IMG/VR virus record: IMGVR_UViG_3300027811_000003
Location: 32,001 to 96,000 of that record
Length of the DNA stretch: 64,000 nucleotides
Direction: 5' to 3' (one strand)
Origin: a virus
Part shown: in pieces, positions 25,676 to 47,922 of the stretch
How the letters are laid out: every line of letters starts with the position of its first letter
Position numbering within the stretch: position 1 is the stretch's first letter
Notes under the pieces: model-generated
What the model saw: the letters and a program-made list of their open reading frames with translations, nothing else
Told to the model about the DNA's origin: nothing
The model's database searches: none
Program-made: the position numbers and the translations under genes

Positions 25676-26582
25676 GTATGTCCTCTATCAATCTTTCTAG
25701 TATGTCTGAACTTATAGAATGACCTGCCGCTCTCTTATGCCCGCCGCCGCCGAACAGTTGCGCGAGCTTGGACACGTCGTAATCTCTTGACCTAAAGCTT
25801 ACACTTCCTTTCTCAACGTTTATCTGACATGCTACGTCCAAATCCTTTCTTCTAGCAAGAAGTCTGTTAAGCAACGGAGAAGTGTTGTTATCTGACGACA
25901 CGATGTACCCAACGCTTATTTCGCTTCCGTCTATCGTGAGTTGCTTTTCGCGCACTTTTCCGATCAAATCTTCTATTATTCGTTCTTTCCTGTCTCCGAT
26001 CATCGACACAATTTCTTTTTCGTCTACGTCGAATATGCTTTCTCTGTACACATTTCTACCGTAACGAAATCTATCTACGAAGTTGTCGCTTCCGACGAAA
26101 GCATGAAACGCAGACAAGTCATCCGACTCTGGAATTTTCTTTGTCCAGAGATCGTCATCCTGAATAATACGAGAAAGCTTGTACGAATAGTCATCTGACA
26201 ATTCGAGATAAAGCCTAAGCAATTCTGTGCCACATTTTTCTTGATCTATCAAGCACCAGCTTTCGTTTGTCAAGTGAGAAGCCGTGTTGTGATGGTCAAG
26301 AAGAACGCAGTTGCCTCTTTTTTCAAGCAACTTGTGGTCGTCGTGGTCCTTTGCAAACCCGACATCTGCAAAAATCAAAAACTTGTCATTTAAATCATGA
26401 AGATTTCTGTTTATGAACCTTCCAACTTCGCCAGCGTTTACTTCGTAGATGCTGCTTTTATCACCGCCAGCGCGCAAGAACATGATCTTCGCGCCGCTGC
26501 CGTCAAGACAATTCTTGTGAGTCACAAGCACTGCGTCTTCTATGTTTTGAAAACGAGGTAACGATTTTATTGAAGCCATCAT
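25665..26582 (-). CDS. DHH family phosphoesterase
   Basis: HKNCLDG, FAD, LDHH, GGGGHKRAAG. Confidence 0.9.
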   Translation of the reverse strand: MMASIKSLPRFQNIEDAVLVTHKNCLDGSGAKIMFLRAGGDKSSIYEVNAGEVGRFINRNLHDLNDKFLIFADVGFAKDHDDHKLLEKRGNCVLLDHHNTASHLTNESWCLIDQEKCGTELLRLYLELSDDYSYKLSRIIQDDDLWTKKIPESDDLSAFHAFVGSDNFVDRFRYGRNVYRESIFDVDEKEIVSMIGDRKERIIEDLIGKVREKQLTIDGSEISVGYIVSSDNNTSPLLNRLLARRKDLDVACQINVEKGSVSFRSRDYDVSKLAQLFGGGGHKRAAGHSISSDILERLIEDIHGI

Positions 26583-29299
26583 AACACAGCTTTCTGCGGA
26601 AGGTCACAAACTCCGTTCCTACAGTTGTCGTTGCTCAAAGCTCCAGCTGACTCTGAGTCTATGTGTTTCATTGCTTCCTCAAGAGACATCGGAGTTATCG
26701 GTTGTTCTTCTCTGCTGCCCTCTGGATAAACTGTCAACCCCTTGACATCTGGCAAATATTCCATGACAAGGTTTGACAGCTCACTTTCAGAAGTTCCCTG
26801 CGGAACGTTCACAGTCTTCGATATAGCGTTGTCTACGTGTCTTTGACAAACTCTCTGCATGTCGAAATGATTTCGCATTGACAACTCGTGAGCACTCTGG
26901 AAGTGCGAAACGTCTCTTCCTTCTCTCACGAATTTCTTGAACAACGGGTGGATGATAGTCTCAGACTTGAGTTCGTCTCCGACTCTGAATTTCCTTGTCC
27001 ATCCAGGACCGAACGACGGTTCGATCGCGCTGTCGACGTCGCACACTATCGACGTCGTTCCAGTGGGAGCAGTTGTCAAGATCGCGCAGTTGCGTATGCC
27101 ATGTTTTCTGATAGACGAACGAATCGACGGCTTGAGAGTCTTGACGAATCCTCCCTTCAAAAACTGATCTGCATCAAACTTTTGGAAAGGACCTTTTTCT
27201 TCTGCGAGTTTCACGCTTGCTTCGTAAGCTCTGTTCTTGACGTGTTCCATAAGTTTGTCTGTGAATTCAAGCGCTTCGTCAGACCCGTATTTCATTCCCA
27301 GCAACAGCAACAAGCTAGACAATCCCATCACGCCCATTCCTATGCGTCTCTCTCCCAAGCTCACCTCTTTGATCTCTGGCAATGGATGATTGTTGACAGT
27401 AATAATATCATCCAAAAATCTTACGGCTAAATCAACAGTTGAATCGATAAGTTTCCAATCAATGTGAAATTTGTCTCCGCTGTTCTTCACAAAACGAGGA
27501 AGCACAAGAGAACCTAAGCAACACGAAAAATATGCAGGTCCCCACACTTCTCCACAATTTTTAACACAAATTCCAGAAGACACTATCGCTTTTTCATCTT
27601 GTTTGCTAGTAACAACATGATAGTTATGATTATCGTCTACTGTTATGTTGTAAACATCTTCGTAGCAATCAAATTCTACTTTCAAAACTTTATGATTTTG
27701 AGATACTTGATTTTTGAAATTAGTCCAAGAACCAAATCTAAATTCGTTCGACAAAAAAATTGGCATTCCACATTCTTTTGCTCGTTTTGACCATAAGCTT
27801 TTCGAAATTCTGCCGTTTTCTATGAAAAGCTTTCTTCCTTCATCGAGAATTTGTTCATTTGTAAAATTTGAATATCTTGGATTGGACATTCCAGGATGAG
27901 ACGAGGATACAAATCTCCACTTGAATTTCAATTCATCTGACATTCTGTGATATGGATTTAATTTTCCTCTCATGTTCTTTGCGTGAAGTTCTCTATGCTC
28001 TTCATGCGACATTACTTTAAGATTTTCAAATCTGTCATCTGTGCAATCACAATTAACATGATGTATTGCAAATTCCTTCGCGTCAACTGGTACACTGTTA
28101 AATTCATGAATAAGACGATACTGACGTCTATTTCTTCTGAAATTTCCTTGAATCTCTCCTGAATTGCAAATTTGTCTATAGGAGTTCGAATCAAAAGAAT
28201 TAAACGGAAAAATGCTATCATTCTCTTTCAAGGACTGTAACTCACGATATTCTAAATTCCTCAAAAGAATTTTATGATCGGGAGTAGCTCTGACAACTGA
28301 GCCATCGTCAAGAGTAAGTTTCCAAACTTCTTTTTTGACACCAGTAATTCTAGGATGTCTTCCCATTTTTATTTCAACTTTTCCAGTCTCAAGATTAGTT
28401 GAGTAAACGGGAACGTCCTTACATTCATCTGAAAGTTGTTTTATCGAAACGGCGTTCCTGCCATCTGCTGTAGCTATCAGAGTATCTCCCGTGACACAGG
28501 GATTCGTGGTTATAAGAGGGTAAAGATATGAAACGTTTGACATCTTGTTAGCAAGATAGCTGTTCAAGATACCCGGTTCACCGCACTTAAGCGCGTTCAG
28601 AATCACCTTTTTCCACAAAGCTTTCGCGCTTAACGTGTTTATCGTCCTGCCGTTGAACACCAAGTTGAACTGCTCGTCTTTACGCACCTTTTCGAAGAAC
28701 GCTTCTGGATCGGTAGCGAAGTTTATCGAAACGTTGGCGTTATTGAGTTGCTTGAGATCAAGCTTCTTGTCAAGAAATTCTTCTATGTCGCCGTGGTCGT
28801 GATTCAAGCTGAACATCAGCGCAGTTCGTCTACCTCCTCCAGCTTTGATCACTTCGCCGGCAGAGTTCAATATCTCAAACAAGCTGACAGCACCCGTCGC
28901 TTTGCCACCAGAGCCATTTATGAAAGTCCCTCTAGGTCTTATCGGAGAGCCGTTCAGCCCAACTCCTCCACCAGTGCCAGCTATTACTATCATGTCGTAT
29001 GCTGTCGTTCCCCATCCTTCTCTGCTGTCGACTGTTGGAATTCCGAAACAATTTGACAACTGACCCTTTGGTCTTCCGGCTCCATACCAAATTCTGCCAG
29101 CTGGCATGAACGTGTTCGCACACAGAAAATCTTTGAATGTCTTTCTGTAAAGAGGAATGTTGTCGCCTTCTTCGGCGTAAGCGACGTGTTCTGCGAGTCT
29201 GCAACATGCGTCAAGCCACGTCTCTTTTTCGTGCAAGGTGTATCTCTTCTGAAAAATGTCAAGAGCAAAACCTGTGGGCTCGTATAACGTGCTAAACAT
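26579..29299 (-). CDS. nrdJ: class II (B12-dependent) ribonucleotide reductase with intein
   Basis: NCF, GGGVG, GGRRTA, TNP|CGE after intein removal, RRIGMG, APTGTTS, DNAISKTVN. Confidence 0.9.
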   Translation of the reverse strand: MFSTLYEPTGFALDIFQKRYTLHEKETWLDACCRLAEHVAYAEEGDNIPLYRKTFKDFLCANTFMPAGRIWYGAGRPKGQLSNCFGIPTVDSREGWGTTAYDMIVIAGTGGGVGLNGSPIRPRGTFINGSGGKATGAVSLFEILNSAGEVIKAGGGRRTALMFSLNHDHGDIEEFLDKKLDLKQLNNANVSINFATDPEAFFEKVRKDEQFNLVFNGRTINTLSAKALWKKVILNALKCGEPGILNSYLANKMSNVSYLYPLITTNPCVTGDTLIATADGRNAVSIKQLSDECKDVPVYSTNLETGKVEIKMGRHPRITGVKKEVWKLTLDDGSVVRATPDHKILLRNLEYRELQSLKENDSIFPFNSFDSNSYRQICNSGEIQGNFRRNRRQYRLIHEFNSVPVDAKEFAIHHVNCDCTDDRFENLKVMSHEEHRELHAKNMRGKLNPYHRMSDELKFKWRFVSSSHPGMSNPRYSNFTNEQILDEGRKLFIENGRISKSLWSKRAKECGMPIFLSNEFRFGSWTNFKNQVSQNHKVLKVEFDCYEDVYNITVDDNHNYHVVTSKQDEKAIVSSGICVKNCGEVWGPAYFSCCLGSLVLPRFVKNSGDKFHIDWKLIDSTVDLAVRFLDDIITVNNHPLPEIKEVSLGERRIGMGVMGLSSLLLLLGMKYGSDEALEFTDKLMEHVKNRAYEASVKLAEEKGPFQKFDADQFLKGGFVKTLKPSIRSSIRKHGIRNCAILTTAPTGTTSIVCDVDSAIEPSFGPGWTRKFRVGDELKSETIIHPLFKKFVREGRDVSHFQSAHELSMRNHFDMQRVCQRHVDNAISKTVNVPQGTSESELSNLVMEYLPDVKGLTVYPEGSREEQPITPMSLEEAMKHIDSESAGALSNDNCRNGVCDLPQKAVL
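27557..28498 (-). mobile_element. intein with HNH endonuclease (314 aa)
   Basis: CVTGDT...ATPDHK...IHHVNCDCTDDRFENL...H...VYNITVDDNHNY...VKN|C; AT-rich. Confidence 0.92.
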
Positions 29300-35745: not shown

Positions 35746-36291
35746 TCACGTCATTTTTGCAAACTTATGATGAGTAAGGCTTATCTTTTTAAATAGATAG
35801 GGATTCTTCTTGCGTAACTTTTTCTTCGCTTTCTCGTCACCGAAGTAGAACACCTCGTTGCCGCACGCCCAGTACTCTCCAACGTCTTTTCTAGAGTAAC
35901 CGTCAGACATGAACTTCGCCTTTTTCGTTTTCTCCCTCACCAATCTCTCGTCTGACGTTATGTCTTCAGAGAAGTCGACGTGGTGAGCGAGTTCGTGAAC
36001 GAGTATCTTCGCAGCGTTTCTCATGCCTTCTTTCGTCGTAGAGACGCGGATCACGCCGTTCAAGTACTCGCCGACGTCTTTAGTCATGCGAGTGAACGTC
36101 ACTTCTCTCAAACCGCTAGAATATGCTATCGGAACCTGCGCGTCTTCCATCTCAGACATCAGTCGCGCGATGAACATGTCCTTGACTTCACGAATCATGT
36201 TCACTTTTTTGCCAAAAGTCACAAGCGTGAGATGTCCGTTTATCAACTCAAACTTGTCATCGTCGACGAACAAAACGTTCCACGAAAACAT
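35746..36291 (-). CDS. zinc metallopeptidase-like protein
   Basis: LVHELAHHVD...YSRKDVGEYWA (lethal-factor/MtfA-like pattern). Confidence 0.7.
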   Translation of the reverse strand: MFSWNVLFVDDDKFELINGHLTLVTFGKKVNMIREVKDMFIARLMSEMEDAQVPIAYSSGLREVTFTRMTKDVGEYLNGVIRVSTTKEGMRNAAKILVHELAHHVDFSEDITSDERLVREKTKKAKFMSDGYSRKDVGEYWACGNEVFYFGDEKAKKKLRKKNPYLFKKISLTHHKFAKMT

Positions 36292-36303: not shown

Positions 36304-37002
36304 TCACGCTTTGTTTACGACGTACTTCGCAGTTCCAAGAGAAATTCTGTTGAACGTCAGATACCTATCGATTTCGTTTTTCGTGATCATGGCGTATCCA
36401 TCGTCAGCGTTAACGAGAATCAAGCCAGCGACTTCGTCAAACGCACGTGACGGCTTGGCCAAGTTTTCCCACGCGATCTTTAGTAACAACGAAGATTCAG
36501 GAGTCAACGTCTCAACGATCTTGTGCAAACCGATCGGGTACTTCTTGCTGCCGTAAAACGCTCCTGCAGAAAATTCTCCGATGAGAAGCGACAACTTCAT
36601 CTTTTCGAGCTCGACAAGAACAAAATCGCGCTCGAAGCCAGCGTACGTTTTGCTTTCAGAAAATCTGACGTTCGTGCACGCTTCGACGATGAAGCACCTT
36701 AGAACATCGGTAAGATGACCTATCGCTTTCTTTCCGTCCCTGCCCGACCTGACTTCGTCAGACTTTCTGCTTATCTTCTTCACTTCCCACTTCGTTGACA
36801 AAGTCACGCCGTCATCGATCACCAAGTCAAACGTAGAAGAGTATCCACCAGTTTTTTCGTGTTTTGCTCCGAGCTCTGCGATAACCTTTTCTTCGCCGTC
36901 TCCTATCCCGCTCCTGACAGAGCTGAACGGGATCGTTTCAGACTTAGACGAAAACGGGATCCAGTAACGCGGCGGCAAAAGCAAACTTTCCTTGACTGTC
37001 AT
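36304..37002 (-). CDS. PD-(D/E)xK nuclease-like protein
   Basis: GEEKV...STFDL...WEVKK; ATGA overlap with the polyprotein stop. Confidence 0.55.
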   Translation of the reverse strand: MTVKESLLLPPRYWIPFSSKSETIPFSSVRSGIGDGEEKVIAELGAKHEKTGGYSSTFDLVIDDGVTLSTKWEVKKISRKSDEVRSGRDGKKAIGHLTDVLRCFIVEACTNVRFSESKTYAGFERDFVLVELEKMKLSLLIGEFSAGAFYGSKKYPIGLHKIVETLTPESSLLLKIAWENLAKPSRAFDEVAGLILVNADDGYAMITKNEIDRYLTFNRISLGTAKYVVNKA

Positions 37003-40000
37003 TTTTCCTCCGGAAGAGATCCAGACCCAAATATTCTCAATCTGCTTAATTGGTTTTGCCACAACTCTTTTGACTTCGGATCGACGCTGTTTTTAAACGA
37101 AGAAACGGCTGAAGATCCTGCGCTTTGACCGACGTGAGCGTTGCCCAATCCAACGAACGGACCGATCTCGTTGATGACGTTCTCTACCACTTTCTCCACC
37201 AACGCGCTGTTCCTGAGCTTGGCATATACGTCTTCGAAGTCTTCTGAGTTAGACACGAGGTGAGGGTCCATGAAACGCTTGAACGTTTGTCTGTTGTCGT
37301 ACACCAAAGCTTTCTTGACTTCAGATCCCTTGACGCCGCCAACGTCTGTGTAGTTCTTCGCGTCGTTGAGCGCCACGACTGAAGCGAGCGAAGGATCTAA
37401 ACCGCCGTCTTCTCGATCGAGTCTTTCCAGCTGTTGCTTCAACGTGTCTACGAGATCGATCGGAACGACGAAGTTGACAGCAGTGTCTGCTTCCACAGTC
37501 GAACTCGAGTCGTGAACAAGCTTCGACACGAACTGCGCGAACTCTTGACCTTGATCGCTCTTCTCGTGCAACTCGAACTTCGACATCACGTCAGGCAACG
37601 ACTTCTTTATCATCTCACTTTGCAAATCGAAGTCAAGCGCTGGAGCGACTGAGTCGACGATAAGCACGACTTTGTTGAACTTGGACGCGAGTCGTCTCAA
37701 AACATCTGCGTGACCTCGGTGAAATGGATTAAACGAACCTATAGTAACGGCCACCTTGTCCGCCCTAGCTTCGCAGACGACGCGCCGAATGGTTTCGAAC
37801 ACATTCTTGTTCAATTCCATGGACTCAAGACGCTGCGGTAACGCACCGGGCGACTTGGTGTCTCCACCCAGGTCGACAAGCACGAGGTCTTTCCCACGTT
37901 TCATGAAGTTGTCAACGTGGACGTCTCTGTAAACTATGCTGTTGCTTTTCAGCTCTTTCATCAACTCGTCGAAGCCCAAGCTCTCTAGATCTGCAAAATG
38001 CGTTTGTGCTTCTGCTATTTCTTCTCCTTCGACGTTTGACATCGCCTTCGCCTTTATGGCTTCCCAGCTTTGCGACCATATGTTGTCGGTGATCTTGAAC
38101 TCTTTCGAATACGTTTTGTTCAGTATGAACGATATTCCCTTTGACAACTTGAACAGCTCTTGGTCTGGAAGAGGAGCAAGCTTTTCCTCGACGACGCAGT
38201 ACCAATCGACTTTTTGCTGAGCTTGTTTTGGCAAGTAAAACACGTTAAACACTTTGACTATGTGTTTGAGTCTCTTGCCCTTCACGAAGTTGCTAGTCTT
38301 CGCGTCAGACAAGTCAGTGGTTAACTTCACCGCGATTCCAGGGCCAGATTCAAACACGACTCCGCTCACGCCGTGTCCCAACATCTTTCCTATCTTGATG
38401 TGTTGTCTCAGAAGTTGTTGGCCGTAATTCGTCAAGACTGGATGGACGTCGAGACGTTTTGGAATCGCAGCTTCGTCGACTCCTTTGATAGTTCCACCTC
38501 TGACAGATGAACCGCCGAGGTCAGACAGCACAAACGTGTCACCACGTTTCATGATGTTGCCACCGTGCCAGTCGTTGTACCTTATTCCGAGAGACCTGAG
38601 ATCGTTCTGAATGTCGTTGAAGTTGAACTTCTGAAGTACGTCTAAATCGTCTTCAGCATACGCTGAATTAAATTCGCCAGCCTCGCCCTCAGTGCTGTTT
38701 GGTCCTAGTTCAGAACCAGTCAGCGGAGTCAGCTTCTCCATCACGATTCCGTAAAGATCGTAGTGCTGTCCGCCGCGATACACGAACTTAAACACGTCGA
38801 ACACTTTTACCATGCGTTTGAGGTTCTTGCTCTTGATTTTCAGCGCAAGCAACGCGTCAGTCTCGTCCTCTGTGACCTTTAGAACTTTGCCGCCGCCGAT
38901 GTCGAACACGATCGCCCTTGTACCCTCGCCGATTTCTTTGCCGACAGTTATGCCACGTTTCTTGAGAAGTTCTTTATCTGCTTCCAACGCGTTCTTGATG
39001 TCGTCAGCGAGAACGTATTCTACCTCTTCTGCGAGATTCGTGATGACGTTCTCCATGACGCGTTCGATCACGTCGGGTTCAGGTCCTTCAGAGTCAGAAA
39101 CTCCCAAGTCTATCGCCACGAACTCGTTTCCGCGTTTCATAACGTTGCCAGAGCTGAGATCCATCCAGTCTATGTGATTTTCTCTCAGCTCGTCTAGCAT
39201 CTCGAACACGCTGAACTTCGACAACGTCCTCATAGCCAACTTTGCTTCTTCTTCTTTTCCAGGGTGTGCTTGCTCCCAAGCTGAAATTTGATTTTGCACG
39301 GCCTGTTCGTCGAGCGACATCCAACGGAACTCCAAGTTTTCGCCGCACCAGCCCAAAGCGTCGTCCAAATCACGTTTGTCAGACTCAGACATGTCTGTGA
39401 CAAGTTCTTGCACGACTCCGTAATAGTGTTGATCGTGTTTGCCTTGAGCTTCTGCTGGTTGCTTGAACTTGAACACGTCGAAGATCTTCGCCACGTGTCT
39501 GAGCGACTTGCCCTTGATCGCGTTGCTAGAACGAGCTTCGGTGTCGTCGACAGTGATCTTCAGGACTTTTCCGTTTCTCAGCTTGAACGCGATGCCACGG
39601 CCGCCGTGGCCCATCTCAGATGCTACGTCGTACCCGTGTTTCTTCAAAATGGCGTCGTTTTGCGCCAAGACGTTGCCTATGCCAACAGAATGCTTTGACT
39701 TGCCAGCTTCTCTCAAGACGCCTTCTATGATCCAGTTGTCCAACGTCGTCTCTATGGGTTCTAGACGATGAACTGCGACGTCCAATCCTTTCATCATTGG
39801 CAACGTGTCCCAGGATTTCACGTACTTCAAAGTCACATGAGGAGAATAACCGTGTCTTTCGTTCGCTTCGACTCCTATCTCCTTAAGACGCATCGTAAGC
39901 TCAGCTTGCATGTCAGACAACGTCGGACAATCTACTGAAGCGTAGATGACGTCGGTGCCTCCTGTCTCATCAGCGCTGAACCTTCCTATGCCACCGAGCT

Positions 40001-40523
40001 TCACTTTGAATCCAAGAGCGCCGTTTTCGAACGTGCGTTCAGTGTATTTCGCGAGAAGCTCGTTCGCTATCTCGACGACTTTCTGCTTTAATTCGGCTGG
40101 AACTGACTTCAGATACGCCACAGTGACGTGCAAGTCTACGACTTCTTCTCCGTCTGGCAACGAAATCTTTTGGCCGACGTCAGCGGGTATCTTCAAAGCG
40201 AAAAAGAACTTTTCCTTTTCTGGAGCGATCAAATCTACCAGGTTGGCTTTGGCTAAAACGTCGAGCGTCGGCGAAGGGCCAACAACGTCTCTGTTGGAAT
40301 CTCTCCTGACAACGCCGATGGACGAAGCGATTGACGAAACGAGATCGTCGACAAATGACTCCATGACGCCAGGAAATCCAGCGTTGTTGGGATCTTGTGG
40401 CTCAAACTCTTCGATGTTGTTCTTCATGTCGTCGGGAAGCGGGTACCCTGGCTTTCCCTTGCCTCCACGAAACCCCATTCCGGCGCCTGAGCCGTTGCCC
40501 GATCTAACGTTGAAGCTAGCCAT
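36999..40523 (-). CDS. multidomain protein: 2H phosphoesterase + 3 protein-kinase-like domains + HxGH nucleotidyltransferase
   Basis: LHVT/PHVT; three repeats of GxG..K..D(x)4N..DLG; GSFNPFHRGH. Confidence 0.85.
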   Translation of the reverse strand: MASFNVRSGNGSGAGMGFRGGKGKPGYPLPDDMKNNIEEFEPQDPNNAGFPGVMESFVDDLVSSIASSIGVVRRDSNRDVVGPSPTLDVLAKANLVDLIAPEKEKFFFALKIPADVGQKISLPDGEEVVDLHVTVAYLKSVPAELKQKVVEIANELLAKYTERTFENGALGFKVKLGGIGRFSADETGGTDVIYASVDCPTLSDMQAELTMRLKEIGVEANERHGYSPHVTLKYVKSWDTLPMMKGLDVAVHRLEPIETTLDNWIIEGVLREAGKSKHSVGIGNVLAQNDAILKKHGYDVASEMGHGGRGIAFKLRNGKVLKITVDDTEARSSNAIKGKSLRHVAKIFDVFKFKQPAEAQGKHDQHYYGVVQELVTDMSESDKRDLDDALGWCGENLEFRWMSLDEQAVQNQISAWEQAHPGKEEEAKLAMRTLSKFSVFEMLDELRENHIDWMDLSSGNVMKRGNEFVAIDLGVSDSEGPEPDVIERVMENVITNLAEEVEYVLADDIKNALEADKELLKKRGITVGKEIGEGTRAIVFDIGGGKVLKVTEDETDALLALKIKSKNLKRMVKVFDVFKFVYRGGQHYDLYGIVMEKLTPLTGSELGPNSTEGEAGEFNSAYAEDDLDVLQKFNFNDIQNDLRSLGIRYNDWHGGNIMKRGDTFVLSDLGGSSVRGGTIKGVDEAAIPKRLDVHPVLTNYGQQLLRQHIKIGKMLGHGVSGVVFESGPGIAVKLTTDLSDAKTSNFVKGKRLKHIVKVFNVFYLPKQAQQKVDWYCVVEEKLAPLPDQELFKLSKGISFILNKTYSKEFKITDNIWSQSWEAIKAKAMSNVEGEEIAEAQTHFADLESLGFDELMKELKSNSIVYRDVHVDNFMKRGKDLVLVDLGGDTKSPGALPQRLESMELNKNVFETIRRVVCEARADKVAVTIGSFNPFHRGHADVLRRLASKFNKVVLIVDSVAPALDFDLQSEMIKKSLPDVMSKFELHEKSDQGQEFAQFVSKLVHDSSSTVEADTAVNFVVPIDLVDTLKQQLERLDREDGGLDPSLASVVALNDAKNYTDVGGVKGSEVKKALVYDNRQTFKRFMDPHLVSNSEDFEDVYAKLRNSALVEKVVENVINEIGPFVGLGNAHVGQSAGSSAVSSFKNSVDPKSKELWQNQLSRLRIFGSGSLPEEK

Positions 40524-40524
40524 G

Positions 40525-40875
40525 TCAAGACCCGCTTATTATGCCGAGCAGCGCCTTGATACCGACGCCGCTGCCGCCGAGAGCTCCGCCTGCGAGCAAT
40601 ATCTTCGTTGCCAGCTTGAAGTAAAACTTCGCACGTTCGTTGTCAATCTCTAACGGTTTCACCTTGTCGTTGACTTCTTTCAGACTTTCTTCTAAGAGAT
40701 TCGTTCTTTTCACGTGAACTTCCAAAACGTTTTCCTGCTTCACAAGAGTGCGGTCGATCGCGTCCAACCTGTCTTCGACTTTGTCGAACCTATTCACGAT
40801 CCTGTTGTCCATGTTTTCTATGCGTTGGGACAAGTTAGAAAGCAACAACGTGATATCTGAATTTGTATTCGACAT
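40525..40875 (-). CDS. coiled-coil protein with C-terminal TM (holin/XhlA-like)
   Basis: Heptad helix followed by hydrophobic Gly-rich tail. Confidence 0.5.
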   Translation of the reverse strand: MSNTNSDITLLLSNLSQRIENMDNRIVNRFDKVEDRLDAIDRTLVKQENVLEVHVKRTNLLEESLKEVNDKVKPLEIDNERAKFYFKLATKILLAGGALGGSGVGIKALLGIISGS

Positions 40876-42024: not shown

Positions 42025-42615
42025 CTACGTTCTCTCCTGCTCACACGACCAGCGGTCTGCCCAGTGAAGCAGCAAAGCTAGTTTCGACTCTTTCATCCCG
42101 TAAATTTTGTTGGCTTCTACGTATTGACCGTCTGACAACTTGAGAGCTAGGTATTCGTCTGAGTTGAGTGACACTCCAAATCTCTGAAAAATGAAAAGCG
42201 TTCTATCTTCAGTGGAATGAATCTGACATTTTTTGTTTATCTCGTACAAAAAACCTCTCTTCCTACCATACTCGTTTTCGTTGTACACGTAATACGGTTC
42301 GACACCGTCTCCCGCTTTTCCCAAGTCATGAAACAATCCGACAAAAGCGAGAGTTTGATCATCATATTCTGAACCCACGAGAGACGCTGAAATTTTCTTC
42401 AGGTTCTTAACGACGTTAAGAGAATGAAGCAGCAATCCTCCGGCAAAGCAATTGTGAAAATCTTCTCTCGACGACGCCGGCGCCAAGAAAAATTGCTCTT
42501 GCATGTTGTCCATCAGTAACTTAACGTCTTCTTGTCTTTTTTCAGACATCGAACCGATCAACGCATTGAAAATTCTTATGTTCTTTTCAAGATCTTGTTC
42601 ACTCAACGTCTTCAT
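42025..42615 (-). CDS. HD-domain hydrolase (YhaM-like)
   Basis: PASS..FHNCFAGGLLLHS, LFHDLGK, LHWAD. Confidence 0.85.
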   Translation of the reverse strand: MKTLSEQDLEKNIRIFNALIGSMSEKRQEDVKLLMDNMQEQFFLAPASSREDFHNCFAGGLLLHSLNVVKNLKKISASLVGSEYDDQTLAFVGLFHDLGKAGDGVEPYYVYNENEYGRKRGFLYEINKKCQIHSTEDRTLFIFQRFGVSLNSDEYLALKLSDGQYVEANKIYGMKESKLALLLHWADRWSCEQERT

Positions 42616-43939
42616 AATTTTCTCCGATCTTCATCTTTGTCACGAATCCAGTAGTTTTTTCTATTTCTTTCTTTATATCCGAAGCATGTCGAATTTCTTC
42701 TGGATGCAGATCGAAAACGACTTCATCGTACACTGTGAAAATCATCTTGCTTTTGATGTCTCTAACGATTTCGTCGGCTCGAGACAGCGCTTTTCCGAAC
42801 ACGAAGCTGCTAAACGTTTGTGCGTAAAGTCCTATCACTTTTCCAGGGCTGAAATCATCGTCTATTTTTATTCTGTGATAGCCTGGCGTGTCTAAAAACC
42901 CGTTTTTCTTTGACTCTGCAACCAATTCATTTCTGAAACGAATTATGGGTTCAAACAATTTGTCAAGCTTAATTAGCATTTCCTTAAGCTCAAAATGTGA
43001 CAGGCCAGTAGACGCGTTTAGCGTGTCCAACGCTCCTCCATAGATGTGAGCGTAAGTGATTTTCTTTATGTCGTCTCTGAGCTTCGGAGTCACTTCTCCG
43101 AACAGTGAAGCAGTTCTGGCGTGAAAATCCAGCACGCCTGCGTAAAATCTCGTCAAGTCGCTGTCGTTGACAGCTTCTACGAGACATCTGTAGTCTATGG
43201 CGTTGAAGTCGAGAGTACATATCTTGCCGTTTTCAAACCTGCTAGTCAACACGCTCCTGCAAAATCCGTGTGGAATTGACATGCATTTGAAACCACTTTC
43301 GACTCTTATTCTCCACGTCTTAGATCCTACTGGACTCATCGCAGACTTTACAAATCCGTTTTTTTCTTGACTCTTGATGCTTCTCAAAAAGTTCGTTTCA
43401 TGCATGTTTAGAGACGAATCGTTTAAACCGACAGATATCTTTTCGACATCGACTTTTATCTTCGCGTCTTCCATTCGTGAAATCACTTTGAACAACGGCC
43501 AAATTCTGTTTTTGTAGTGCTTTATGTCGTGTTCAGTTACAGATCTCAAGATCTCGCGCATCGCTTCAGCCCTAAGGCTAGCACGCTTCGACAACATTCC
43601 GTTAGGCAAAAGTTCTTCCAAACAGATAGACTCGAGATCTACATTGGCGTTTAGAAGAGCGTTAGCGTGCGCAGAAAATTTCTGTTCGTGTTTCAAAAAT
43701 TCGTCCTTGCACGCCAACGCGCTTTTCTCGACGAACGAAGACAGACTGCAGTCTATGTCTAGCAACATCTTCAAGTCGAAAACTATTTCGTTGCTAACAA
43801 GTTCTACGGCTTTTCTCGCGTCAAAACACACCACGAAATCGTCAGCGTCTAGTTTGACTTGTCTGAGACTTTCGTCAAACGAAAACAATTCTATCTTGCC
43901 AGTTTTGTCTCTGAAACCGTCGATGAACGTCAGACTCAT
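42599..43939 (-). CDS. minimal family A DNA polymerase-like protein
   Basis: Motif A LDFNAIDYR, DFH, motif B RDDIKKITYAHIYG, motif C TVYDEVVFD. Confidence 0.8.
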   Translation of the reverse strand: MSLTFIDGFRDKTGKIELFSFDESLRQVKLDADDFVVCFDARKAVELVSNEIVFDLKMLLDIDCSLSSFVEKSALACKDEFLKHEQKFSAHANALLNANVDLESICLEELLPNGMLSKRASLRAEAMREILRSVTEHDIKHYKNRIWPLFKVISRMEDAKIKVDVEKISVGLNDSSLNMHETNFLRSIKSQEKNGFVKSAMSPVGSKTWRIRVESGFKCMSIPHGFCRSVLTSRFENGKICTLDFNAIDYRCLVEAVNDSDLTRFYAGVLDFHARTASLFGEVTPKLRDDIKKITYAHIYGGALDTLNASTGLSHFELKEMLIKLDKLFEPIIRFRNELVAESKKNGFLDTPGYHRIKIDDDFSPGKVIGLYAQTFSSFVFGKALSRADEIVRDIKSKMIFTVYDEVVFDLHPEEIRHASDIKKEIEKTTGFVTKMKIGENYEDVE

Positions 43940-43970: not shown

Positions 43971-45776
43971 TTAAAAATCTTTCCTGCTCTTTGTTCCAAG
44001 AGGGTCAGTGCAACTGGAGAACACTTTGTAATTCGTTACAAAGCTGCCACGTTGGATGACGTCTTCTTTCTCGTAAAGCGTGAACGGACCGTCCCACCTG
44101 CTTATACCGAAGTCGAGCCATATCAAACCAAACGTGTCTAACACGAAGTTTCCTATCGTGATTATCTGTCCTTGAATAGTGGGAGAAAAAATCTGCTGAA
44201 CAGCCGGCGCTCTGTCTTCTTTCCAAGCTGCGTCAGGAGATGTAACTTTTTCTGACCTGTTCACACTCTTGTCACCGAAGTAACGTCTCATGAAGATGCC
44301 AGCCATCTGCTCGTCTTGTATAACTTCAAACGACGTGTCTTGCACGAATGAGTTTCCTTTGACTAAAGAAACGAACGGAACTCCCTTGTCGTTCACTGCT
44401 TTTTTTATGTCGTTCCTGCTCACTATCTCACTTGGTAGCTTCTGCGCATCGTCGGGAGAAAACTTGACGAATTCTGATTTCGTGTCAAAAATGTAGTAGT
44501 AAACTTCCATCTTGCCGCTTCTGTTTCTCCTAGACACACTCTTCATGATCAGCTCGGGTATAGATCTATTCGAATTGTTGTCTTCTCCTTTCCTGTCCCA
44601 GACGTATTCTTTCGAAAACAATCTCAAAAAAGGTTCGATGAAGTTGTACACAGTCAGTCTAGAGCCAGCCTTCATGAGATCTCTGAACACTTTTTCGACG
44701 TCGTCTAGCGGAAAAGTGAAGTCAGATATCGGTTTGTTAGACACGTCTGCACCGGCAGAATATTTTGGAGCTGGCTTCCCCGCTCTGCCGTTCAAGCACC
44801 CGACGAACATCTCCTTGAAATCAAATCCTAAGCTCGTGAACGAGTCTTTGATCGCGTCTGCGAATATCACGTCTATGACCATCCCGAACGGAATGTCGAC
44901 AACGCCTTTCTTCTTTGACAACTTTCCAGAAGAAGACACTTCGTCGTGAAACTTGTTCAGCAGCGCTTTGACGGGCGAACCTCCGTCAGCGTACGGGTCT
45001 ATTTCTACTAGTTTCCCAGCTTTCGTTATAGTCGTCGTAGCGTTGGGATCGCGTACCAAGAAAGCTTGTCTCAATCCGCTTTCTCCCAGCTCGTACGCTT
45101 GAATCGCAAAACGTATCTGCGAATCTGTCTGCAAGTTGAACTTGTAACTCGTGACGTAAAATCTTACTTGTTCTCTTCCTTGGACTGCGATTCCTTTTGA
45201 CCTGTCTACGAAGCCTTCGCCGTTAAGCAACCCGTTGCTCACTCCCGTGCTTGCAGACCAACCATACTCCAAAGCAAAAGCTTGTCCTGGAGTGATGAGT
45301 GACGACCACGAGTCTTCGTCGCCGACATGCGACCCGTCAGATCTTATGTGTTGGTCGAACACTACGTCAGGTCTGTGGACGACAAACGTGATCTCAAGCG
45401 TCCTGTACAAGATGATGCCTCTTGGATTCGCCACTTTCACGCTTATCTTTTCCAACGAAACTGGGGGCCTGTCTCTGAATCTCTCGTTGGCGCTCGACAA
45501 CGACCTACCGAATTTAGGAGGCTCTACCCAAGTCATGTTCAACGGATGTCTTGGCGACCCGTCAGAGTTTGCGTGCATCGCCTTCCCAGTCGACGGGTCT
45601 ATCTCCCACATGGTGACGTAAGGTACAGCTTGCGCTTTTTCAGCTGGAGTTATTCCTTCGAGGAGTTCAATCGCTTTCTGAGAGCACGCGTAAAAGGGTT
45701 TGCCGCTCGTGTCACCGTCGTTAGAAGGCGGCGCAGAGTTAGACAGCACTGCGAACTTTTGCGGTTTGTAGCTCAT
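43971..45776 (-). CDS. putative baseplate hub protein
   Basis: 601 aa, LEYGWS motif, position after tail X/LysM-like gene. Confidence 0.5.
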   Translation of the reverse strand: MSYKPQKFAVLSNSAPPSNDGDTSGKPFYACSQKAIELLEGITPAEKAQAVPYVTMWEIDPSTGKAMHANSDGSPRHPLNMTWVEPPKFGRSLSSANERFRDRPPVSLEKISVKVANPRGIILYRTLEITFVVHRPDVVFDQHIRSDGSHVGDEDSWSSLITPGQAFALEYGWSASTGVSNGLLNGEGFVDRSKGIAVQGREQVRFYVTSYKFNLQTDSQIRFAIQAYELGESGLRQAFLVRDPNATTTITKAGKLVEIDPYADGGSPVKALLNKFHDEVSSSGKLSKKKGVVDIPFGMVIDVIFADAIKDSFTSLGFDFKEMFVGCLNGRAGKPAPKYSAGADVSNKPISDFTFPLDDVEKVFRDLMKAGSRLTVYNFIEPFLRLFSKEYVWDRKGEDNNSNRSIPELIMKSVSRRNRSGKMEVYYYIFDTKSEFVKFSPDDAQKLPSEIVSRNDIKKAVNDKGVPFVSLVKGNSFVQDTSFEVIQDEQMAGIFMRRYFGDKSVNRSEKVTSPDAAWKEDRAPAVQQIFSPTIQGQIITIGNFVLDTFGLIWLDFGISRWDGPFTLYEKEDVIQRGSFVTNYKVFSSCTDPLGTKSRKDF

Positions 45777-46095: not shown

Positions 46096-47922
46096 TCACA
46101 CGTCAGTTATCTTGTCGTAGTCAAGCTGCGAATCATCACCGAAACGTCTAAAGAACCCTTGACCGACTGGGACGACATTTTTACCGGTCATGTTGTCGAT
46201 GATCGTAGACAAATAGTTTCCCGATGCGTCGAAAGTGCCGAGACCGCCAAACTTGCCGTCTTTCCCTCTGCCGACGGGAACGTCGTGCAGCACAGTGAAC
46301 GTCATAGAAACTTCTATGTTTCTTGGAAGCTTGAAGTCTTTCTTGAGTTCCCACAACGCTTCAGAATAATCGAAGTCAAGACTTTTGATGATTCCAGGCA
46401 TGCCCTTGCTTCCTTCTTGCCCGTTCGAATTGAAAACGTCTCCTATATGCAACCTGACTACTGGACCTGACGTCATCACTAGATTGTTGTCGTATTCTGG
46501 ATATACCATGGAAGAGAGCCAGTGAAGCTTCTGCCATATAGTTACCACGTCTTCAGGACCAAACGCGACCAACGCGAAATCTATCGAAATGTTCCTTGCT
46601 GTAGACTGATACGTCGCCACTGCGTCTACTCTTCCCATGTAGTTCGTTTCGTTCCACTGAGGAGACAAGCTCTCCCTCAATCCTCTTATCAACGGTCTGA
46701 AATACACTGTCCTGTACGTGTCGCCGATCGGCCTGAGATCGGTGAAAGACAACGGCAAGTACATGTCGTCGTCGTCTATCTGGTCTCCCCGTCCTTTTCT
46801 AAACGTCGTGAACCCGAGATCGTTCTCGCCCTTCGTTCTCATCGGAATGATCCCGTCAGCGAACGCCGTGGCAGTCAATCTATCGACTGAGCCGACGCTA
46901 GATCCGTTAGCGAGAGAATTTCTGACTCCGTCGAAAGCTTTCACAAGGTCGTCAGACTTCTTCATCCTGGCCAAACGCGGCTGACCGTCCATCTTGTTCT
47001 GACCAGTGTCCATCATGCTGGTCAAAGAACCTGCGCGACCGTTCAGGACCTCGTCTACTAACGAACCGACTTGAATTTGAAACTGTGCTGTTCCTTCGGC
47101 TGGCAAGTCTAAAGCAGGCAACAAGAGATCGCCGTTTCCTGGAACCGGAGCGATCAGCGCCGGGTTCCATATGTTTCCGAAAGTGTTCAAAGCGAACAAC
47201 GACTTCTGCGTCATCGCGTGAACGATCAACTTTTCAGGACCAAGTCGAGCGAGCCTCTCCAAGTGCCTCTCGTACAACACGGGATCACCAGCCAACGAAC
47301 CAGGATCTGAAACTCCTATCATGGGAGAGTAAGTGTCTCCGTCTATGCTGTAGCCAGAAGTCTGTTTGAAGTCTGGAGCGACGTTTTCCTTGGAAGGCTT
47401 TGCCAACGCGACGTCTGCGGGAGGAGCCAAGAAAGACGCTTCGGGTCTGACGAACTTCGGAGGGTTTGGGACGTCGTCGTGCTTCGACAACTCTACGTTG
47501 ACGGGTTTGACGGGATCGCTCGGATGACCCTCGACGAACTTCGGAGGAAACGGAACGCTTGACTCGCTTGTTTTCTCTGGCACGAGCGGAGGAGGCAGCC
47601 TCGATGGATAAATCAGCGTCGGCGATATGACGAGCGTGTTTGTTTGCCCTGTCGCCGGCTCAAATGACAACGGAGGCGAGGAAGGAGACGGAGTGCTCAA
47701 GACGACGTTCTGTGGTGACGACATAAGAGAGTGGATAGGTACAATGAACTCAGGAGGAAGTGGGAGCTGCGCCTTGACGGCGGGCTTCGGTGCGAGGCCT
47801 GGCATGCGTGCTATCAGCTCGATGGGGCTTTCTCTCAACGGATCGTAAGGATCTTCGGGGGTGTCTGGGCTTCGTTCCCTAGAAACCAAAAACTGTCCAA
47901 TCAAGACTTCTATCTCTGACAT
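46096..47922 (-). CDS. baseplate/tube-initiator-like protein with Pro-rich N-terminus
   Basis: C-terminal ESLSPQWN..YMGR...YQSTAR...P.VRL.IGD...LP..IEVSMTF; follows tape measure. Confidence 0.6.
   Translation of the reverse strand: MSEIEVLIGQFLVSRERSPDTPEDPYDPLRESPIELIARMPGLAPKPAVKAQLPLPPEFIVPIHSLMSSPQNVVLSTPSPSSPPLSFEPATGQTNTLVISPTLIYPSRLPPPLVPEKTSESSVPFPPKFVEGHPSDPVKPVNVELSKHDDVPNPPKFVRPEASFLAPPADVALAKPSKENVAPDFKQTSGYSIDGDTYSPMIGVSDPGSLAGDPVLYERHLERLARLGPEKLIVHAMTQKSLFALNTFGNIWNPALIAPVPGNGDLLLPALDLPAEGTAQFQIQVGSLVDEVLNGRAGSLTSMMDTGQNKMDGQPRLARMKKSDDLVKAFDGVRNSLANGSSVGSVDRLTATAFADGIIPMRTKGENDLGFTTFRKGRGDQIDDDDMYLPLSFTDLRPIGDTYRTVYFRPLIRGLRESLSPQWNETNYMGRVDAVATYQSTARNISIDFALVAFGPEDVVTIWQKLHWLSSMVYPEYDNNLVMTSGPVVRLHIGDVFNSNGQEGSKGMPGIIKSLDFDYSEALWELKKDFKLPRNIEVSMTFTVLHDVPVGRGKDGKFGGLGTFDASGNYLSTIIDNMTGKNVVPVGQGFFRRFGDDSQLDYDKITDV

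Follow-up and report, generated by a model that had tools for sequence, protein, structure and literature searches.

A modular multi-enzyme protein from the replication cluster of an uncultured T4-like phage

The 64,000-nucleotide stretch of viral DNA analyzed here (the window) encodes, in a single ORF with an ATG start, the 1174-residue polyprotein P0001, the local member of a family of interchangeable enzyme cassettes that are set between family-specific termini and joined by Glu-rich linker helices. Our preferred reading, to which we give a probability of about 0.45, is that P0001 is a modular multi-effector protein of the "polyvalent" type, acting in the cytoplasm as a kit for host takeover and counter-defense. 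The source phage is an uncultured, T4-like myovirus with records solely from soil and sediment metagenomes, and the family of modular phage proteins to which P0001 belongs is apparently large and undescribed.

Domain layout of P0001

The ORF, its parts and the two neighboring genes of interest are as follows (h-x-E denotes a hydrophobic residue, any residue and Glu).

40525..40875, minus strand: upstream coiled-coil-like ORF, 116 aa, its stop 1 nt ahead of the polyprotein ATG
36999..40523, minus strand: whole ORF P0001 (N-terminal segment, 2H, K1, K2, K3, nucleotidyltransferase, C-terminal segment)
40344..40523, minus strand: Gly/Pro-rich N-terminal segment, aa 1-60, conserved, without known fold (jackhmmer domain map)
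39699..40226, minus strand: 2H phosphoesterase, aa 100-275, LigT/ThpR-like (Pfam PF13563, profile against PDB)
39657..39737, minus strand: linker 1, aa 263-289, a pair of h-x-E with Ala-Gly after the second (motif scan)
39090..39656, minus strand: kinase-like unit K1, aa 290-478 (AF2, Foldseek against PDB, BFVD matches)
38976..39089, minus strand: linker 2, aa 479-516, kinase tail and amphipathic helix, three h-x-E (motif scan, AF2)
38502..38975, minus strand: kinase-like unit K2, aa 517-674 (32% identical to K1 by blastp, E=1e-27)
38424..38501, minus strand: linker 3, aa 675-700, a single h-x-E with Ala-Ala after it (motif scan)
37857..38423, minus strand: kinase-like unit K3, aa 701-889 (30% identical to K1 by blastp, E=8e-25; match to K2, E=5e-26)
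37782..37856, minus strand: linker 4, aa 890-914, kinase tail and helix, with h-x-E-Ala abutting the nucleotidyltransferase (motif scan)
37209..37781, minus strand: HIGH-superfamily nucleotidyltransferase, aa 915-1105 (PF01467, phrog_395, AF2, Foldseek)
37167..37208, minus strand: linker 5, aa 1106-1119, three h-x-E within 14 residues (motif scan)
37002..37166, minus strand: C-terminal segment, aa 1120-1174, conserved and family-specific (low-confidence AF2 model)
35746..36291, minus strand: zincin metallopeptidase P0162, 181 aa, HExxH and a downstream Glu (Pfam, profile against PDB, synteny)

The first-pass annotation called a 2H phosphoesterase, three kinases and a nucleotidyltransferase, and all five calls are correct by Pfam, PHROG, blastp, AF2 and Foldseek. 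The residue positions of every motif it quoted were verified: HxT at aa 131-134 and 228-231, the DxxxxN loops at aa 455-460, 651-656 and 867-872, DLG at aa 472-474, 668-670 and 884-886, the HxGH stretch at aa 929-938, and the five linker strings at aa 265-273, 489-500, 682-686, 908-919 and 1108-1119.

Both HxT motifs of the 2H domain are intact, and the domain matches PF13563 (E=1.9e-8, 34.9 bits, cut-off 27). Its profile retrieves from the PDB the LigT/ThpR-type RNA 2',3'-cyclic phosphodiesterases 1vdx (5.6e-9) and 5h7e (1.9e-8), with Acb1 absent among the matches at E<=10. The domain had been likened to T4 Acb1, with which it shares the 2H superfamily, the two HxT/S motifs and a T4-like phage as the source of the gene; by sequence the domain appears to be of the LigT/ThpR type instead. 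In our preferred reading, it would open the 2',3'-cyclic phosphate RNA ends or the cyclic nucleotides of host RNase-type or signaling defenses.

The kinase-like units are mutually homologous (blastp, 30-32% identity, E 8e-25 to 1e-27). K1 has the Gly loop, Lys, alpha-C Glu, DxxxxN and DLG, and its C-lobe stops directly past DLG. None of the three units itself has a Pfam match; K3 weakly matches phrog_3809 and phrog_4301. The AF2 model of K1 (pLDDT 89, pTM 0.82) adopts a kinase fold, for which the best Foldseek matches in the PDB are CK1, CK2, PknB and APH (E ~1e-6), every PDB match being a protein kinase or an APH enzyme. Since the APH-type small-molecule kinases nearly equal the protein kinases in score, the substrate class (protein, RNA 5'-OH or small molecule) is not readable from the fold. 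The BFVD structural matches are small phage kinases, T7-like ones included, and the T7K homologue A0A7L7SMK1, named in PMC13645617, is among the best. T7 kinase (T7K, gp0.7) is a broad, hyperpromiscuous anti-defense enzyme and, like the units of P0001, a small phage Ser/Thr-type kinase domain (PMC13645617). The Phage_T7_kinase Pfam annotation is also found on one relative of P0001 and on 11% of one nearby Atlas cluster. The polyprotein units differ from T7K in having DLG where T7K has a DPV motif, in the absence of a shut-off domain, and in their tandem arrays inside a multi-enzyme chain; P0001 had no match to the T7K PHROG at E<=0.1. By analogy with T7 kinase, the units may phosphorylate host proteins broadly.

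The nucleotidyltransferase matches PF01467 (E=2.5e-6, 28.2 bits, cut-off 21), and its AF2 core (pLDDT ~80) is closest by Foldseek to NadM (2qjo, 3.6e-7), PPAT and archaeal NMNAT, with which it shares HxGH and a Rossmann-like fold. The earlier assignment to the HxGH enzymes holds, but NMNAT is inseparable from PPAT (CoaD). Identity to these enzymes is 14-22%, the substrate pocket is not assignable, and a Nudix or kinase partner, as in the NadM/NadR enzymes, is missing from P0001. In P0001 HxGH is intact and the family's second motif (ISxTxxR-like) degenerate, so the enzyme is possibly weakened. It might rebuild an adenylylated cofactor, for which NAD+ is the foremost candidate.

A family of shuffled cassettes

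The family comprises 2012 representatives at E<1e-3, of which 82 (1-2.5 kaa) are found at E<1e-30. Its canonical order runs from a conserved N-terminus through an optional 2H domain, an Rnl1-like ligase, one to four kinases, a nucleotidyltransferase and a further kinase to a conserved C-terminus. The N-terminal segment of P0001 is common to about half of the family proteins, and jackhmmer domain maps show cassette-like shuffling across the family. Kinase units number 1-6 per chain; the triple kinase, for which the first-pass annotation knew of no described precedent, is real as three homologous units and is not unique, as relatives carry 2-6. Positional orthologues range from 1174 to more than 2500 aa and vary extremely in domain number and content. 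The domains added in 24 relatives include InPase (7), SLT (3), RNA_lig_T4_1 (4) and kinases of the ABC1, APH and Pkinase families.

This organization recalls the polyvalent proteins of phages and conjugative elements described by Iyer, Burroughs, Anand, de Souza and Aravind in 2017 (PMC5512222), which likewise combine numerous conflict-type enzyme domains within a single phage polypeptide of cassette-like, highly variable content. Truncated kinases, 2H and InPase are all known in them, the kinases lacking the C-terminal subdomain and keeping the catalytic residues and the hinge-strand Gln, as do the units here; InPase and a peptidoglycan hydrolase recur in the relatives of P0001, and a zincin peptidase is associated in both cases (PMC5512222). 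The resemblance has limits. Neither Kinase-PolyVal (PF18762) nor MPTase-PolyVal (PF18818) gave a match at E<=10, the zincin peptidase of the polyprotein family is a separate gene that is never fused, and the gene of P0001 lies in a T4-like replication cluster rather than next to virion genes. That account describes neither the HIGH nucleotidyltransferase nor the conserved termini or Glu-rich linker helices, and the family joins 2H with an RNA ligase, a pairing that its authors report never to have seen among the polyvalent proteins (PMC5512222).

The same pairing invites the reading that P0001 is an uncleaved, cytoplasmic heal-and-seal RNA-repair enzyme, comparable to fungal and plant Trl1 (ligase, kinase and 2H CPD) or T4 Pnkp with Rnl1, which we consider unlikely. 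The LigT-type 2H would open 2',3'-cyclic ends, a kinase unit would phosphorylate the RNA 5'-OH, the Rnl1-like ligase of the relatives would seal, and the NMNAT-like domain would give NAD+ for removal of the 2'-phosphate, the ligase having been lost from P0001. At the level of the family, ligase, kinase and 2H do occur in one chain: an Rnl1-like KxDG ligase is the most frequent partner of the kinases and the nucleotidyltransferase (PF09511 in 4 of 24 relatives), it co-occurs with 2H in several relatives, and one relative (L012) is a two-domain nucleotidyltransferase-ligase. The family is also without a P-loop polynucleotide kinase, which leaves the polyprotein units as the sole kinases available. 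The units are, however, ePK-like, and we know of no ePK-fold polynucleotide kinase. The family also differs from Trl1 and from T4 Pnkp with Rnl1 in its several kinase copies and its added HIGH nucleotidyltransferase. A single repair step poorly explains 2-6 kinase copies per chain; Iyer et al. report no RNA ligase beside the 2H domains of polyvalent proteins (PMC5512222); the ligase is absent from P0001 and from the rest of the 113 kb examined (genome ~55% complete); and the ligase call in the relatives is itself moderately supported, as the family profile matched no solved ligase structure in sequence searches. In the preferred multi-effector reading, the relatives' ligase could seal RNA after the 2H step.

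The order DNApol-HD-...-polyprotein-...-SSB-UvsX-exo-DnaB-RNR is conserved in nine IMG/VR loci, which places the gene at a fixed site in a replication/recombination cluster outside the head, tail and baseplate modules. The upstream 116-aa ORF is kept in the loci L004 and L005, and the polyprotein shows stop/start (translational) coupling to its neighbors. This site, between the DNA polymerase/HD phosphohydrolase genes and SSB/UvsX and near those for RNR, thymidylate synthase and a DHH phosphoesterase, would suit an accessory enzyme of nucleotide metabolism or replication, for instance one that uses small-molecule kinases to make or salvage an uncommon nucleotide or cofactor needed in DNA synthesis or hypermodification. 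The APH-type matches of K1 and the use of small phosphorylated molecules by HIGH nucleotidyltransferases are consistent with such a role. It is nevertheless very unlikely: the extreme domain variation among orthologues is typical of conflict proteins rather than core metabolic enzymes, SLT, InPase and RNA ligase fit poorly as partners, and T7-like protein kinases rank with the best viral matches by structure.

Linkers, candidate proteases and delivery

P0001 contains 31 [LIVM]xE motifs against 23.5 +/- 3.9 in shuffles (P ~0.04), and 10 of the 31 are inter-domain, in 14% of the residues (binomial P=0.009). By itself this enrichment is modest. The 93 family proteins together show a strong, Glu-specific enrichment: 338 family linkers hold 48 h-x-E per 1000 aa and the domains 19.5, and h-x-E[AGS] is 2.5-fold more frequent in these linkers than in composition-matched shuffles, whereas h-x-D[AGS] (0.83-fold) is not enriched. 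The h-x-E linkers of the first-pass annotation are real and kept in homologues, contrary to the lack of conservation that the annotation had named as a refutation. Part of the signal has another source. A G-x-E-P-P-V-L-E tail lies 13-14 residues past DLG in 227 of 263 kinase units, packs on the kinase domain in the AF2 model (block pLDDT 92) and closes stand-alone kinases too; the first h-x-E past each kinase is part of this conserved tail.

Genes for a gp23-type capsid protein and for a prohead protease of the T4 gp21 type (Peptidase_S77, E=1.5e-33) are present in the genome, and the protease provides a possible mechanism for cutting past Glu. Putative head-core proteins adjoining the protease match the linkers in h-x-E density (49-52 per 1000 aa; genome median 17.6). 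In SLT-bearing relatives, a signal/SAR-like Ala/Gly segment precedes the SLT, usually 1-5 residues past an h-x-E, which suggests that the chain is cut there.

The first-pass annotation had proposed that the precursor is packaged in the prohead, cut in its linkers after Glu by the gp21-type protease, and ejected with the DNA as single enzymes, a ready-made counter-defense kit. We place this proposal first among the alternatives, as a doubtful one. P0001 would then resemble T4 Alt and the internal proteins and the ejection proteins of phiKZ, 201phi2-1 and SPN3US, which are processed by gp21-type proteases; T4-type proteases cleave short h-x-E motifs past the Glu, and Alt is shortened at both termini (PMC9026906, PMC5694885). 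The T4-type head and S77 protease of the genome, candidate motifs that end in Glu, and conserved non-enzymatic termini with h-x-E at their borders, which could be propeptides and possibly a route into the prohead, are all in keeping with it, as are the relatives with SLT and InPase, both marks of virion delivery according to Iyer et al. (PMC5512222). Against it stands the location of the gene in a conserved replication/recombination cluster, coupled to its neighbors and outside the late and structural clusters. No second ORF with either terminus was found in the 113 kb, at odds with a general targeting signal, and the termini are unlike the 10-residue capsid targeting sequence of T4. The cuts would hit many internal junctions to free whole enzymes, which sets P0001 apart from Alt and the ejection proteins. 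The missing Acb1 match and the NMNAT/PPAT ambiguity weaken the proposal as well. Moreover, h-x-E is a common tripeptide, and its enrichment does not amount to cleavage.

An alternative route of processing is open through a dedicated zincin peptidase encoded nearby, a rival enzyme that the first-pass annotation had not mentioned. P0162 scores 26.1 bits against Pfam ATLF, slightly below the cut-off, and the zincin profile retrieves the anthrax lethal factor catalytic domain (8e-6) and Pro-Pro endopeptidases (4e-3) from the PDB. HExxH is invariant in the zincin peptidases by polyprotein loci. Both the window and 5 of 8 readable related loci (6 of 9 genomes) have this gene 3' of the polyprotein, adjacent in four loci and separated by one ORF in the window and in L013.

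In the multi-effector reading that we prefer, the polyprotein would be made in the infected cell alongside the replication and recombination genes and act in the cytoplasm; its linkers would probably serve as processing or hinge modules, with the zincin and the gp21-type protease as candidate proteases. The analysis itself establishes what the domains are and how they fold, how the family is built, its synteny, the conservation of its linkers and the existence of the two protease genes; for P0001, we infer the substrates, the timing of expression and the occurrence of cleavage. SLT and InPase in the relatives, together with the S77 protease and the Glu-specific linkers, suit delivery in the virion no less well than action in the cytoplasm. 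The delivery and processing story first proposed is plausible but unproven. P0001 and its family extend the "polyvalent protein" theme.

Catalytic domains of the polyprotein

The segment of the window from 36999 to 40523 is, on the minus strand, one uninterrupted open reading frame of 1174 codons. The first-pass annotation had delimited this ORF correctly, leaving its strand unstated, and every motif that it quoted lies at the residues to which it had been assigned. The 2H domain has both HxT motifs (residues 131–134 and 228–231) and matches Pfam PF13563 over residues 128–262 (E = 1.9e-8; 34.9 bits against a cut-off of 27). The histidine and threonine of each motif are invariant in our alignment of 2H domains (A5). 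The PHROG labels concur with Pfam, giving 'RNA ligase'-type 2H families for this domain and 'cytidyltransferase' for the nucleotidyltransferase. The domain belongs to the 2H phosphoesterase superfamily. It had been likened to Acb1, the anti-CBASS nuclease of T4; by sequence it is LigT-like instead. The A5 profile, compared with all PDB sequences, matched LigT/ThpR-type RNA 2',3'-cyclic phosphodiesterases (E = 5.6e-9 and 1.9e-8); up to E = 10, it matched no chain of Acb1. The sole cGAMP phosphodiesterase among the matches listed was a poxvirus enzyme, at E = 1.2.

The nucleotidyltransferase matches PF01467 from residue 927 (E = 2.5e-6; 28.2 bits against a cut-off of 21), with HxGH lying within residues 929–938. 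Its AlphaFold2 model has a core with a pLDDT of about 80, flanked by a linker and a C-terminal tail below 50. Foldseek matched this model to the NMN adenylyltransferase NadM, PPAT and archaeal NMNAT (E = 4e-7 to 1e-5). The HxGH enzyme proposed at first pass is thus confirmed by motif, Pfam and fold, as a HIGH-superfamily nucleotidyltransferase for which NMNAT and PPAT are not separable. The second, ISxTxxR-like signature, which binds nucleotide phosphates, reads Lys-Gly-Ser-x-x-Lys at residues 1064–1071, compared to Ser-Gly-Thr-x-x-Arg in the family consensus.

The three kinase units (K1–K3) are mutual paralogues (30–32% identity; E = 1e-25 to 1e-27), none of which has a Pfam match. The Gly loop, beta-3 Lys, DxxxxN and DxG are complete in each, and G, K, D, N and D-x-G are invariant across the alignment of kinase units (A2). 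We modeled K1 with its linker (residues 276–515) in AlphaFold2 from 14 aligned sequences, stand-alone relatives among them, at a pLDDT of 89 and a pTM of 0.82. Foldseek returned at least 500 PDB matches at E ≤ 0.001 (best E = 2.4e-6, probability 1.00), and the best 50 listed comprised only protein kinases (CK1, CK2, PknB, CDKs) and phosphotransferases of kinase fold, APH among them. The TM-scores against full kinases are only about 0.4, because the chain exits the domain some 14 residues past DLG, without the usual C-lobe. By the model and the position of the tail, the full C-lobe (activation segment, APE and helices F–I) is not present in K1. The motifs of all three units and the model of K1 identify a protein-kinase-like (ePK/APH) fold. 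This minimal fold of about 180 residues is of interest in itself, being among the smallest ePK-like catalytic cores.

The likeness of these units to the T7 kinase family is structural only. The T7 kinase family phrog_2828 was not among the PHROG matches at E ≤ 0.1, and DPV replaces DFG in that family, whereas the present units have DLG. In a viral structure library, K1 was matched best by T7-like phage protein kinases and by small phage proteins that are uncharacterised. One structural match is a T7-kinase homologue named in a study of the T7 kinase, which disarms many defence systems through promiscuous phosphorylation (PMC13645617).

A family of variable enzyme arrays

When 1.84 billion representatives were scanned in full with HMMER, 2012 proteins matched at E < 1e-3, 82 of them at E < 1e-30. 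A word-indexed search gave 20 large relatives of 1011–2054 residues, the longest of their contigs measuring about 198 kb. Domain maps made with iterated HMMs revealed a canonical order: a conserved Gly/Pro-rich N-terminus, an optional 2H domain, a ligase-like domain of about 470 residues, one to four kinase units, the nucleotidyltransferase, one further kinase unit and a conserved C-terminus. K-x-D-G and E-G-x-V are invariant in the ligase-like domain. The identification as a ligase is based on these motifs together with the weak matches that 4 of 24 relatives have to Pfam RNA_lig_T4_1; the profile of the domain found no ligase in the PDB. The 24 relatives additionally carry InPase (seven) and SLT lytic transglycosylase (three) domains, and further kinase-family matches to ABC1, APH, Pkinase and WaaY.

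The present polyprotein is a short variant, with the N-terminus, 2H, three kinases, nucleotidyltransferase and C-terminus and without the ligase and the terminal kinase. It has five catalytic domains in its chain, compared to up to about ten in relatives, and its N- and C-terminal segments recur in no other ORF of the 113 kb of phage genome analyzed. The array is variable, and three kinases are one of its states. The triple kinase had been singled out as distinctive; multi-kinase arrays are the rule in the domain maps. A LigT-like 2H domain and a ligase-like domain are what a Trl1-like RNA-repair enzyme, working as an uncleaved chain, would contain. The ligase is missing from the short variant, and we consider this explanation unlikely.

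At L012:9989-12100 (+), a related IMG/VR locus, a 703-residue protein combines a HIGH nucleotidyltransferase with an Rnl1-like ligase, without kinases, and adjoins a DNA polymerase gene. It suggests that the family has this pair of domains as its functional core. Two other leads were set aside. A 1636-residue protein of L018, beside terminase, portal and S77 protease genes, seemed at first to argue for a head context; it has only the nucleotidyltransferase domain in common with the family and is not a member. Stop-codon recoding in the polyprotein of L004 was ruled out, as the ORF extends beyond the end of the locus.

The closest described concept, and one that the family fits, is the 'polyvalent protein' of Iyer et al., a phage or plasmid polypeptide with 2–15 conflict-related domains (PMC5512222), a range that includes the five catalytic domains found here. 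Polyvalent proteins also carry 2H, InPase and peptidoglycan hydrolase domains, frequently accompanied by a zincin peptidase with a presumed role in processing, and their kinases have lost the C-terminal subdomain while retaining the catalytic residues (PMC5512222). Of the three kinases in the first-pass annotation, the motifs and fold stand, while the truncated type had been noted in principle already in 2017. There are also differences. A place beside virion, late or transfer genes would point to delivery with the DNA; the present gene lies in a replication cluster. The Pfam models Kinase-PolyVal and MPTase-PolyVal fail on this genome, the former (PF18762) having no match anywhere in it at E ≤ 10. 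Finally, the family combines 2H with RNA ligase, explicitly not observed by Iyer et al. (PMC5512222).

Genomic setting and the neighbouring zincin

The 113 kb analyzed (G000; about 55% complete by CheckV) is from a T4-like myovirus, found in soil and sediment metagenomes. Genes for sheath, tube and baseplate hub are present, as are those for portal, terminase and a gp23-type capsid protein. A prohead protease of the T4 gp21 type (Peptidase_S77, E = 1.5e-33) is encoded at G000:101249-101851. The genes around the polyprotein all have the same orientation: a DNA-polymerase fragment and an HD hydrolase precede it, and SSB, UvsX, exonuclease, DnaB and RNR follow. This order is kept in nine IMG/VR loci, where the polyproteins measure from 1211 to more than 2500 residues. 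The conserved place of the gene, from DNA polymerase/HD to SSB/UvsX, is thus a replication cluster and not the head-related context implied earlier. Its ATG is 1 nt past the stop of a 116-residue coiled-coil ORF, and its stop overlaps the ATG of the next ORF (ATGA; window 36304-37004 (-), about 233 residues). The latter, between the polyprotein and zincin genes, has a weak DUF5655 match and is missing at that place in related loci. The late-promoter motif TATAAATA has one copy in the window, on the opposite strand and not above chance, and sigma-70-like sites near the gene (11, against 8.5 ± 2.9 in shuffles) are not in excess.

Our preferred reading, to which we assign a probability of about 0.45, is that the polyprotein is made together with the replication genes and acts in the cytoplasm, possibly after cleavage by the zincin. 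With RNR among its neighbours and an NMNAT/PPAT-like domain in its chain, it could also be an accessory enzyme of nucleotide metabolism; we judge this very improbable.

The 181-residue zincin is encoded one ORF downstream of the polyprotein, at window 35746-36291 (-). It is a zincin metallopeptidase, with an invariant HExxH and a downstream Glu. Its profile matches the catalytic domain of anthrax lethal factor (8e-6) and the M34 Pro-Pro endopeptidases that it resembles (4e-3). The protein scores slightly below the cut-off of Pfam ATLF and has no match to MPTase-PolyVal. Of the eight other loci readable beyond the polyprotein, five have a homologue downstream of it (directly adjacent in L003, L005, L009 and L010, one ORF off in L013); none was detected there in L006, L014 and L015, and L004, which ends within the polyprotein, was left out of the count. 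No fusion of zincin and polyprotein was found among 160 family proteins. The neighbouring zincin is a candidate processing enzyme for the polyprotein. Cleavage at Pro-Pro was rejected for the present protein, whose three kinase tails are without Pro-Pro, though it is conserved in the family tail. As to the protease invoked at first pass, an S77 enzyme is indeed in the genome; the second putative protease, next door, had been missed.

Several neighbouring genes are of note in their own right. The DNA polymerase is apparently split over two adjacent ORFs (window 42599-43939 and 43971-45776 (-)), a pair conserved in all related loci; the 446-residue ORF matches just the C-terminal part of PolA-type PHROGs, and the 601-residue ORF upstream has no family match. 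Two large conserved ORFs between baseplate hub and polymerase (window 46096-47922 and 47936-50785 (-); 608 and 949 residues) have no PHROG or Pfam match. HNH-endonuclease-like insertions in the 1405-residue portal ORF (L001:10099-14316 (-), equal to G000:104099-108316) and in the 906-residue RNR large subunit ORF (window 26579-29299 (-)) suggest inteins or homing elements.

Linkers, possible processing and implications

The first-pass annotation had the polyprotein packaged in the head and cut there by the gp21-type protease after the Glu of hydrophobic-x-Glu (h-x-E, [LIVM]xE) motifs in its linkers. In this polyprotein alone the surplus of h-x-E is modest. In 338 inter-domain linkers of the family its density is 48 per 1000 residues, compared to 19.5 within domains, or 1.8 times that of composition-matched shuffles. 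The proposed linker motifs are thus kept in homologues: h-x-E[AGS] reaches 2.5 times the shuffles, against 1.1 for h-x-D and 0.8 for h-x-D[AGS]. The z-scores are inflated, as the sequences are related; the specificity for Glu is clear nonetheless. E-x-h is enriched as well (1.6 times), as expected of amphipathic acidic helices. In 227 of 263 kinase units, G-x-E-P-P-V-L-E lies 13–14 residues past DLG. Because this P-P-V-L-E tail is modeled as a beta-bridge packed against the kinase (block pLDDT 92) and likewise terminates stand-alone kinase proteins, it is at least partly structural.

Two ORFs flanking the S77 protease, putatively of the head core, have 49–52 h-x-E per 1000 residues, compared to a genome median of 17.6.

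Putative head-core ORFs rich in h-x-E beside the gp21-like protease (outside the window)
G000:100660-101241, 193 residues, likely a scaffold or core protein cut up by the S77 protease
G000:103174-104034, 286 residues, likely a scaffold or core protein cut up by the S77 protease

Proteases of the T4 type cleave after Glu within short motifs (PMC9026906, PMC5694885). In all six SLT-bearing relatives inspected (P0020, P0087, P0074, P0132, P0100 and P0081), a signal/SAR-like segment, weakly hydrophobic and rich in Ala and Gly, comes before the SLT domain, in most cases 1–5 residues behind an h-x-E. This arrangement resembles an exported, endolysin-like cassette within the chain, and an exported SLT inside a cytoplasmic enzyme chain is sensible only if the chain is cut. 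The density of h-x-E in the putative head-core ORFs, the Glu cleavage of T4-type proteases and the signal segments all favour real processing.

An S77 protease in the genome and h-x-E at the inter-domain junctions are preconditions of a gp21 substrate, necessary but weak as evidence. In view of the replication context of the gene, we regard packaging of the polyprotein in the head and its cleavage there by the gp21-type protease as doubtful. The broader form of this idea, that a T4-like clade packages a giant, reshuffled enzyme polyprotein in the prohead with Glu-rich linker helices serving as core-docking modules and gp21 cleavage sites, is likewise unlikely. Were packaging true, one gene would deliver variable, ready-made kinases, RNA-repair enzymes and a cofactor synthetase into the next host; relatives would add a lytic transglycosylase that is exported. 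This would be a cassette system of injected effectors, analogous to polymorphic toxins. Should the linkers be protease sites, they would offer a transferable 'cut here' module for delivery systems based on T4-type capsids and extend to tailed phages the polyprotein strategy that is common among RNA viruses.

A whole clade of phages carries arrays of two to six minimal kinases joined to modules of NMNAT/PPAT-like, ligase and RNA-end-healing type. Provided that these domains function as predicted, the family would be a large and so far untapped source of anti-defence enzymes. It is also a natural instance of domain cassettes being shuffled at defined linker modules.
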